From assembly GCA_002688505.1 (NCBI GenBank), contig CP024013.1, positions 90,001-122,000 of the forward strand: a stretch of DNA of 32,000 bases. The letters are read 5' to 3'. The translations under genes were made by a program, and so were the position numbers. How positions within the stretch are numbered: position 1 is the stretch's first letter; every line of letters begins with the position of its first letter. The DNA is from Candidatus Saccharimonadota bacterium. Its GTDB lineage: Bacteria; Pseudomonadota; Gammaproteobacteria; Enterobacterales; Enterobacteriaceae. Below the pieces are notes generated by a model, which was not told the origin of the DNA, made no database searches, and worked only from the letters and a program-made list of their open reading frames with translations. Of this stretch, positions 13,594 to 15,523 are shown in pieces.

Positions 13594-15523
13594 ATGAAAA
13601 TAAAAAAAAATAATAAAAATAATAAATTTAAAAAAAAATTTAATAAAAATATAACAAATCAAAAATATAAAAAATTTAAAAATAAAAGAAAAAAAATATT
13701 TAAAAAAAAAAATATAAAAAATAATTTTAAAAAAAAAAATAAAATTAAAAAAAAAAAAAAAAATATAAAAAATAAAAAATTAAAAAAAAAAAAAAAAATA
13801 AAAAAAAAAAAAATAAAAAAAAAAAAAAAAAAAAAAAAAAAAAAAAAAAAAAAAAAAAAAAAAAAAAAAAAAAAAAAAAAAAAAAAAAAATATAAAAAAT
13901 AATCAATTAAAAAAATATAAATTATTAAAAAAAAATATAATTCTAAAAAGAAAAATAGGAAAAATAATTAAAAACAGATCACCTATTATAACTATAATGG
14001 GACATGTTAATCATGGTAAAACATCATTAATAAATTGTATAAAATCATCAAATATTAAAACAAAAGAAATTGGAAATATAACTCAAAATATAAATGCATA
14101 TAATATTAAAAACAAATATGGAAAATTAACATTACTAGATACTCCAGGACATTATACATTTACAGATATGAGAAAAAAATCTATAAATATATCAGACCTA
14201 ATAATATTGTTAATAGCAATAGATGATGGAATAATGCCACAAACTATAGAAATAATAAAATATGCTAACAAAAAAAAAGTACCTATATTAATAGCATTAA
14301 ATAAAATTGATAAAATTAATTATTTAGAAAATATAAATACAATTAAAAATAAAATAATTAATAATAATTTAATATCAAATAAACTATTTAAAAAAAATAT
14401 ATTTATAAAAATTTCTACAAAAAAAAAAATTGGTATTAATAAATTAATAAAATATATATTTATAAAATCTAAATTAATAAAATTAAAAACTATAATAAAT
14501 GGTATGGCTTCAGGAATTATACTAGATTCAAACATTAATAAAAATATAGGTCCAATAGCTAAAATACTTATTAAAAAAGGGACTTTAAAAAAAGGAAATA
14601 TAATTTTATGTAATGAAACATATGGTAAAATAAAATGTATTTTTGACGAAAATAAAAACATAATTAATAAAGCTAAACCATCTATGGCTGTAGAAATATC
14701 AGGTTTTTATAAAATTCCTAATATAGGAAAAAAATTTATAGTAGTTAATAATAAAAAACAAGCCAAAAAAATATCTGAAATAAAATATAAAATAAATAAA
14801 GAAAAAAAATTAGAAAAAATAAAAAAAAAAAATCTTAAAAATATTTTATTAAATAAAAATAATAAAAATTTAAATATAATATTAAAAACAAATTTATAAT
14901 CAAAAAAAAAAAATCTTAAAAATATTTTATTAAATAAAAATAATAAAAATTTAAATATAATATTAAAAACAAATTTATTAAGCTATATAAAAACTATAAA
15001 AAATAGTATTAAACAAATATCAAAAAAAATTAAAATAATATATTATAATGTTGGTAATATTAATGAAAATGATATAATATATGCAAAAACAACCAACTCT
15101 ATTATAATAGCTTTTAATGTTGAAAAAGACAAAATAATAAATAAAAATAATAATTATAATATAAAAATATATTATTTTTCATTAATTTATCAATTAATAG
15201 AAAAATTAACTAATATATATAAAATAAAATTTAAAAAATTAAATATAGAAAAAGAAATTTTAGGAATAGCAATTATTAAAAATATTTTTAAATCATCAAA
15301 TAAAAATGTAATAGCTGGATGTAAAATAAGCAAAGGATATATAAATATAAAAAATAATATAAAAATAAAAAGAAAAGATAAAATTATATACAAAGGAAAA
15401 ATTAAATCTATAAAAAAATTTAAAGAGAAAGTTAAAATTGTATATAATAATAATGAATGTGGAATTTATATAAAAAATTTTAATAAAATTAAAATAGGAG
15501 ATAAAATAATATCATTTAACTAA
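13594..15523 (+). CDS. infB: Translation initiation factor IF-2, interrupted by a frame change inside a poly(A) tract and by one in-frame TAA
   Basis: Segment a (13594-13902, frame +1) is an ATG-initiated K/N/I/F-only N-terminus ending at TAA 13900. Segment b (13817-14899, frame +2) reads ..SPIITIMGHVNHGKTSL (G1), DTPGH and NKID, then domain II. Segment c (14900-15523, the same frame as b, beginning right after TAA 14897-14899) is 207 sense codons before the terminal TAA (15521-15523), with no internal stop and no ATG. It encodes ILKTNLLSYIKTIKNSI...ECGIYIKNFNKIKIGDKIISFN (IF2 C-terminal domains). I checked every codon of segment c by hand. Confidence 0.85.
13815..13890 (+). repeat. 76-nt uninterrupted poly(A) homopolymer inside infB
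   Basis: Direct count: T at 13814, A at 13815-13890, T at 13891. It is preceded by A-runs of 16 (13747-13762), 18 (13781-13798) and 14 (13800-13813). Confidence 0.95.
14817..14978 (+). repeat. Tandem direct duplication, 81-bp period, two copies, inside infB
   Basis: 14821-14897 is identical to 14902-14978 (77 nt: A12 then TCTTAAAAATATTTTATTAAATAAAAATAATAAAAATTTAAATATAATATTAAAAACAAATTTAT). The copies are separated by AATC (14898-14901). Confidence 0.93.

Follow-up and report, generated by a model that had tools for sequence, protein, structure and literature searches.

A stop-generating repeat in infB of Candidatus Stammera capleta, a probable flaw of the genome record

The infB locus and its two insertions

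The DNA analyzed here, a 32-kb stretch referred to below as the window, belongs to Candidatus Stammera capleta, an extracellular pectinolytic symbiont of tortoise beetles, and has a G+C content of 16.6%. UGA encodes tryptophan in this organism, as is documented for Stammera (PMC8629427). Across the 33 ORFs of the window, 28 in-frame TGA codons stand against 5 TGG codons, and nusA, which lies upstream of infB, is intact only if TGA is read as Trp. Reading TGA as Trp (code 4) leaves the TAA that interrupts infB unaffected.

The identity of the gene as infB, with the repeat described below falling at the boundary between domains II and C1, had been proposed in an initial annotation made from the sequence and is borne out by Pfam matches and by alignment to Escherichia coli IF2. 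A P-loop of the GHVDHGKT type, here GHVNHGKT, is found at positions 14000 to 14023 (Pfam GTP_EFTU, 5.8e-26), and a domain II barrel (PF22042, EF-G_D2, 2.7e-17) follows on the 3' side of the G domain. The IF2-specific C1 domain (PF11987, 4.3e-18) is matched within positions 14900 to 15520 over profile positions 8 to 116 of 117; the same segment gives weak D2 and D4 (C-terminal barrel) matches and aligns to E. coli IF2 residues 668 to 879. As recorded, the gene is not one uninterrupted frame, being broken by a frameshift at a poly(A) tract (13815-13890) and by the TAA at 14897-14899, and the sole IF2 product on record for the 271,175-bp contig that holds the window is a 300-aa fragment (13997-14899). 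Excision of the two private insertions (13764-13890 and 14898-14978) yields a single 573-aa ORF, compared with 574 aa for the IF2 of the closest relative. Without the 81-nt insertion, IF2 aligns unbroken to E. coli residues 371 to 879 (E = 3.8e-108), in agreement with the earlier proposal that deleting 14898-14978 restores a collinear gene. The features of the locus are collected in Table 1.

Table 1. Pieces of infB and the private features that separate them, all on the forward strand
Feature	Position	Strand	Remarks
infB 5' part: ATG and K/N-rich N-terminal region, frame 1	13594..13763	+	Aligns collinearly with the IF2 N-terminus of the closest relative
Private 127-nt insertion in infB with 76-nt poly(A) (13815-13890)	13764..13890	+	Absent from closest relative
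infB G domain (GHVNHGKT P-loop), domain II, and first 25 C1 residues, frame 2	13891..14896	+	Pfam; E. coli IF2 alignment
Repeat copy 1	14821..14897	+	77 nt, 97% A+T
In-frame TAA made by the joint	14897..14899	+	..TTTAT/AATC.. (slash, joint), next base T
AATC spacer	14898..14901	+	Unlike left flank (AAAT) and right flank (TAAG)
infB 3' part: complete C1 (PF11987) and C2 barrel	14900..15523	+	207 codons and TAA, no canonical start
Repeat copy 2	14902..14978	+	77 nt, same as copy 1; runs on into the normal gene

The repeat consists of two 77-mers (each with 50 A, 25 T, 2 C, and 0 G) that show zero differences, are separated by AATC, and recur with a period of 81, as the initial annotation had reported and as a check of the sequence confirmed; the identity extends 0 bases beyond either side. 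The 81-nt insertion, made up of a 77-nt exact copy plus AATC, amounts to 27 codons and is in frame. Translation in the infB frame, which at the joint reads AAT TTA TAA TCA, likewise upholds the reported in-frame stop: copy 1 is translated to ..KKKNLKNILLNKNNKNLNIILKTNL and ends at the TAA, and copy 2 encodes the same 25 residues (KKKNLKNILLNKNNKNLNIILKTNL) before continuing as LSYIKTIKNSI.... A single-copy arrangement would read GAAAAAAT, the 77-mer, and TAAGC directly. Beyond the joint, the frame remains open for 207 codons up to the TAA at 15521-15523, as had been noted, and the chance of such an open frame given the composition of the window is about 3e-9. The initial annotation also pointed out that this part has no ATG, and neither GTG, TTG, nor CTG occurs in frame between 14900 and 15520. 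Among exact direct repeats whose copies lie within 400 nt of each other, no other in the 32-kb window reaches 25 nt, and the 77-mer repeat is thus not a low-complexity by-product.

The event had been described as an 81-bp tandem duplication. The exact 77-nt repeat and the period of 81 stand, but the spacer matches neither flank, and the event is therefore not the clean duplication of an 81-bp unit. In a simple slippage duplication the joint consists of a unit end followed by a unit start, usually with microhomology; the AATC joint fits 0 of the 5 possible phases of an 81-nt unit, and no microhomology was found at the repeat boundaries. An alternative parse, an 80-nt unit (AAT plus the 77-mer) with one inserted C, needs two events in copies that are otherwise identical. 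The absence of any difference between the copies makes the event evolutionarily instantaneous.

The repeated 25 residues correspond approximately to E. coli IF2 residues 670 to 697. They are predicted to form the end of the helix between domains II and C1, a loop, and the first C1 beta strand (residues 18 to 24), and the sequence past them is predicted to be a complete C1-helix-C2 module, according to an AlphaFold (AF2) model of the downstream piece that has a mean pLDDT of 87 and comprises an alpha/beta domain, a helix, and a barrel.

The second insertion, of 127 nt, lies about 1 kb upstream of the 81-nt repeat and moves infB from frame 1 to frame 2. In 138 kb of Stammera sequence no other homopolymer exceeds a quarter of the length of this insertion's poly(A) run, the longest being 17 nt in the rest of the window and 19 nt for 106 kb from relatives. 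All 7 of the non-A letters in the insertion match the letter 127 nt downstream, which happens at 0 of 2,872 other offsets; 5 of these 7 letters sit in an obvious 25-nt repeat, and the remaining two add modest evidence. The insertion differs from the downstream 127 nt solely by changes of non-A to A, and it thus resembles a duplicate of the following 127 nt with almost every letter turned to A. An A run of this length would give transcripts of mixed length in which all three frames are represented. This upstream lesion, the genetic code, and the non-templated nature of the AATC spacer are features additional to those in the initial annotation.

Comparison with related Stammera genomes

A scan of species-representative genomes (GTDB) returned 15 loci, all from Candidatus Stammera capleta, and the closest of these (CP043978.1) has 82% amino acid identity in IF2. 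The initial annotation had suggested a comparison with related strains, and the outcome is uniform: in 15 of 15 related Stammera genomes infB is uninterrupted, spans 513 to 605 codons, and carries one copy of the repeat segment, so that the repeat is private to this record and the two-copy state is derived. The alignment with the closest relative covers 22 kb at 90.2% identity and shows just two indels that exceed 21 nt, namely the 81- and 127-nt insertions private to the window, and both fall within infB. Apart from these insertions, infB contains no stops or frameshifts, and its protein identity to the closest relative is 87% in the N part and 77% in the C part.

Constraint on the gene was assessed by a relative-rate test that counted private amino acid changes in the window lineage and in its sister, using two outgroups. 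The counts (window versus sister) were 17 versus 12 upstream of the stop and 12 versus 9 downstream of it, giving 29 versus 21 for the whole of infB, compared with 31 versus 33 for four flanking genes. There was no signal of relaxed selection downstream of the stop in this test and no clear excess in infB as a whole. Such a lack of acceleration is compatible with an artefact, with a very recent event, and with retained function, and it speaks against an old pseudogene. The initial annotation had taken the open frame after the stop as a sign of persisting coding constraint. This argument does not discriminate among explanations, because an artefact or a very recent lesion would leave the downstream frame just as intact, and the relative-rate test shows no more than a lack of acceleration.

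Tandem repeats do arise naturally in this lineage. The N-terminal regions of infB in the Stammera genomes L014, L016, L017, and L019 contain repeats of 18- or 24-nt units, and L016 has an exact 27-nt repeat in three copies outside infB. The record for L017 (CP043989.1) is linearized within the infB N-terminal repeats, which shows that assemblies are prone to break in infB. Several routes were taken in search of a second, independent assembly of this strain, and none turned one up: exact-protein look-ups with the 300-aa fragment and with truB gave no match, the relatives recovered in protein searches with the full IF2, the joint region, and truB did not exceed 89% identity, metagenome contigs scanned for exact DNA matches gave none, and the GTDB genome scan gave only relatives, at best with 82% amino acid identity.

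Possible origins of the insertions

Because the 81-nt insertion is private and ageless, has a non-templated spacer, and shares infB with a second anomalous insertion, the evidence shifts the weight toward an artefact or an unfixed variant. The initial annotation had left three options side by side (a split gene, a polymorphism, and an artefact), and it is the latter two that are favored. We hold with moderate confidence that the 81-nt insertion is a flaw of the genome record, caused by unmerged overlaps between contig ends, and not a working feature of the organism, and we infer an assembly mechanism behind both insertions. Two neighboring contigs would have shared their terminal 77 nt, which is the overlap of de Bruijn-graph contigs at k = 77, and one of them would have borne a 4-nt dead-end tip, the source of AATC. 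Joining these contigs end to end without merging the overlap would leave the exact repeat and the TAA. The 127-nt poly(A)-rich insertion may be a second unmerged join, at which the left contig would end in a corrupted version, largely turned to A, of the 127 nt that open the right contig, and the roughly 1 kb from 13891 to about 14900 would then be a short contig joined end to end on both sides. In the bacterium, infB would be one ordinary gene of 573 codons encoding a normal, one-piece IF2.

The identical 77-mers, the non-templated AATC, and the lack of microhomology are unlike a slipped-strand duplication and are as expected of an untrimmed overlap with a tip. The length is also suggestive: a widely used assembler has 77 as its highest default k for 150-nt reads, and contigs that are neighbors in its graph share an overlap of k. 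The match to k = 77 was noticed post hoc, and such numerology is a lead, not proof. The 76-nt length of the poly(A) run equals k - 1, which fits node-based graphs only and not edge-based graphs at k = 77; it is kept only as a lead. An edge-based de Bruijn graph can loop through the 77-mer only if the AATC joint is present in reads, a point against the artefact; for the joint to be purely computational in origin, the contigs must have been connected manually or by a scaffolder. In a closely related beetle-symbiont project, 150-nt reads were assembled with the assembler mentioned above and the contigs were merged manually (PMC7289800), and in a later study of 50 Stammera genomes, local assembly errors had to be removed from all 50 (bioRxiv 10.1101/2023.12.12.571295). 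No other locus in the window could supply the joint sequence through a false graph link. Other observations also count against an artefact: the insertion is in frame, which under an artefact has a 1-in-3 chance, and tandem repeats are natural both in infB of Stammera and, in L016, outside infB.

Several devices by which a cell might live with the TAA were looked for. Reassignment of UAA was rejected, as TAA is a regular stop and the other ORFs of the window are intact under code 4. Of the window's 33 tabulated ORFs (the three infB pieces counted), 31 terminate with TAA, often with T as the next base, as at the joint. No suppressor tRNA with the anticodon UUA is present among the window's four tRNAs (Leu-GAG, Met, Val, and Phe), and an Rfam search of the window found only rRNA, tmRNA, and tRNAs. 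The first near-cognate codon after the joint TAA is ATT at 14924. A structured recoding signal was rejected, the joint region having a minimum free energy of -5.2 kcal/mol (z = +0.93), as was slippage at the A12 runs, given that both other frames of copy 1 are closed and that the run in copy 2 comes after the stop. A consensus scan for an internal promoter that could serve the C fragment gave 38 sites versus 26.6 expected, which is uninformative in DNA of 84% A+T. The arrangement does have matched take-off and landing codons with a stop after take-off (UUA at 14894-14896, TAA at 14897-14899, and UUA at 14975-14977), a match that follows automatically from the duplication. Neither a take-off hairpin nor a unique landing site is present, as five other UUA triplets lie in the gap.

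These results bear on the readings in which the duplication is real. If a graph assembler made the joint, some reads must contain it, and the insertion may therefore be a real allele of a subpopulation or a library chimera. A real duplication that is unfixed or very recent is rather unlikely and comes second; in a polyploid symbiont population, sampled as a pool from beetle organs, some genome copies would carry it and intact ones in those cells or that population would supply IF2, and the assembler would have threaded the loop once, placing the variant in the consensus. An evolutionarily instantaneous event would account for the identical copies, natural tandem repeats occur in Stammera infB and nearby, and there is no decay downstream of the stop. 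Tandem duplications also revert readily, so that mixtures of alleles are expected. Against this, the lack of microhomology and the non-templated 4-nt spacer are atypical of replication slippage, and the second anomalous insertion, 1 kb away in infB, is left unexplained. A fixed duplication with IF2 still working is improbable in our judgment. Under it, the G and II domains would end at the TAA and translation of C1 and C2 would begin anew at a near-cognate codon, for instance ATT 14924; or peptidyl-tRNA-Leu would hop from the UUA at 14894-14896, where landing at 14975-14977 would recreate the wild-type protein exactly; or low-level read-through of UAA would insert a 27-residue linker. The claim that IF2 is made either as two polypeptides or by a hop from the UUA at 14894 to the matching UUA of copy 2 is a shade more improbable still. 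The in-frame insertion speaks for a fixed duplication, as do the intact downstream frame with no excess of change, the identity of the codon before the stop to that at the ideal landing site, and the C fragment itself, a complete C1-C2 module that is confidently folded in the AF2 model (pLDDT 87). E. coli infB, moreover, uses internal in-frame starts. It counts against this reading that none of the four start codons occurs in frame in the C part, that TAA is an ordinary stop in the window and UAA followed by U a strong terminator, that the hop would have no stem-loop or other structure at take-off and five competing UUA triplets before the ideal landing site, and that the N-terminal part would need its own rescue at the poly(A) frameshift. 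We know of no trans-acting split IF2, and infB is a one-piece gene in all 15 relatives.

The reading in which infB is a true, decaying pseudogene and initiation is served some other way seems very improbable. Two independent frame-breaking lesions in one gene would fit it, and it has precedents among extremely reduced intracellular symbionts, in which infB is lost or eroded in Sulcia-RANSCY and in Vidania of Dictyopharidae (PMC10333215) as well as in Walczuchella (PMC12188211); IF2 is therefore not absolutely untouchable. Stammera, by comparison, lives extracellularly, its infB is kept by all 15 of the other genomes, and the gene in the window is otherwise without stops or frameshifts, retains 87% and 77% protein identity in its two parts, and has no significant rate excess. 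Nor do we know of a co-symbiont that could complement infB in Stammera. Taken together, the evidence favors an artefact of the record, followed by an unfixed or very recent duplication, then by a fixed duplication with rescue, and last by decay.

Significance and comparison with known systems

In its present state the finding serves chiefly to correct a genome record, and only the minority reading of an IF2 that is split or depends on a bypass would be remarkable. If the duplication is artefactual, infB is wrongly given as broken in the record of a minimal symbiont genome that is well known. Counts of pseudogenes, core-genome sets, and reasoning about minimal gene sets would be distorted by this, and the record merits correction. 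If the duplication is real and fixed, this would be, to our knowledge, the first bacterium known with IF2 split between a ribosome-binding GTPase half and an fMet-tRNA-binding half. Such a case would bear on how the halves of IF2 cooperate in initiation and on the tolerance of tiny genomes for lethal-looking mutations, and the split or bypass-dependent IF2 would belong to an extracellular bacterium whose genome is among the smallest for that lifestyle.

The gene shares with E. coli IF2 (PDB 3JCJ chain f) the GHVxHGKT P-loop, domain II, C1 (PF11987), and C2. It differs in being recorded in three pieces, through the poly(A) frameshift and the joint TAA, and in having a short K/N-rich region, as in other Stammera genomes, where E. 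coli IF2 has long N-terminal domains. Disruption of an initiation factor gene in a tiny symbiont genome recalls Sulcia-RANSCY, Vidania, and Walczuchella, but those are old losses in intracellular symbionts with partners, whereas infB here is otherwise pristine and the symbiont is extracellular.

Translational bypassing is known from gene 60 of phage T4 and from the mitochondrial byp elements of Magnusiomyces. As in those systems, the sense codon before the stop has an identical codon downstream, and landing there would restore the normal protein. Unlike gene 60, where the gap is about 50 nt (versus 81 nt in infB here), the locus has no take-off hairpin, has five competing UUA triplets, and has no relative with the element. 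Frameshifts in poly(A) tracts of insect endosymbionts, rescued by transcriptional slippage, were reportedly described by Tamas et al. in PNAS in 2008, and the upstream lesion of infB is likewise a frameshift within an A run. Slippage-rescued tracts are roughly 10 nt long, compared with 76 nt here, and, unlike in those cases, slippage cannot rescue the TAA at the joint. With respect to assembly, a plain untrimmed overlap has no spacer, unlike the 4 nt between the copies here. In other respects the locus resembles an unmerged de Bruijn overlap: the exact repeat is as long as a common k (77) and occurs in one record only, its excision restores infB exactly, and a second overlap-like insertion lies about 1 kb away.

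Gene order and genetic code

The window and its closest relative among the Stammera loci, CP043978.1, are collinear over 22 kb (window positions 3610 to 25610), with an identity of 90.2%. The only indels longer than 21 nt in this alignment are the two insertions in infB, the gene for IF2. Both loci share the order mutS, rpsI, rplM, a tldD-like gene, rplU, rpmA, obg, greA, ftsH, nusA, infB, rbfA, truB, gpmA, grpE, smpB, deaD, pnp, rpsO, groEL, and groES. The tldD-like gene and rplU are separated by a divergent intergenic region, which holds a degenerate AT-rich tandem repeat block (6988 to 7290; periods of 46, 67, and 84).

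Throughout the window TGA is read as Trp, with 28 in-frame TGA codons versus 5 TGG codons across 33 ORFs; if read with code 11, nusA (12499 to 13536) falls into three ORFs.

Poly(A) insertion and RNA genes

The 127-nt insertion moves infB from frame 1 to frame 2. Its sequence resembles an A-washed version of the 127 nt that come after it. Homopolymers other than its poly(A) tract reach 17 to 19 nt at most.

Trans-translation is kept in this ~0.27-Mb genome, since a tmRNA gene lies beside smpB. The window start falls inside the 16S rRNA gene, which is cut by the window edge.

Coordinates of the insertion and RNA gene features in the window
Feature	Position	Strand	Remarks
Private insertion, 127 nt	13764-13890		infB N-terminal region
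Poly(A), 76 nt	13815-13890		Inside the 127-nt infB insertion
tmRNA gene	18688-19046		Adjoins smpB; tag peptide AKNNQNCALAA
16S rRNA gene, partial	1-880	minus	5' 812 model positions

Tandem repeats in related Stammera loci

One related locus, L016, carries an exact tandem repeat of three 27-nt units (6312 to 6392); no further exact direct repeat of 25 nt or longer was found in the 106 kb of related Stammera loci. Natural in-frame tandem repeats occur in the infB N termini of other Stammera (loci L014, L016, L019, and L017, the last being CP043989.1, positions 1 to 240). Because the CP043989.1 record has its first base within these repeats, its assembly appears to have broken there. The repeat units in the Stammera infB N-terminal region are KNKKIF, in six to seven copies, and NKNKKNIF, in five.
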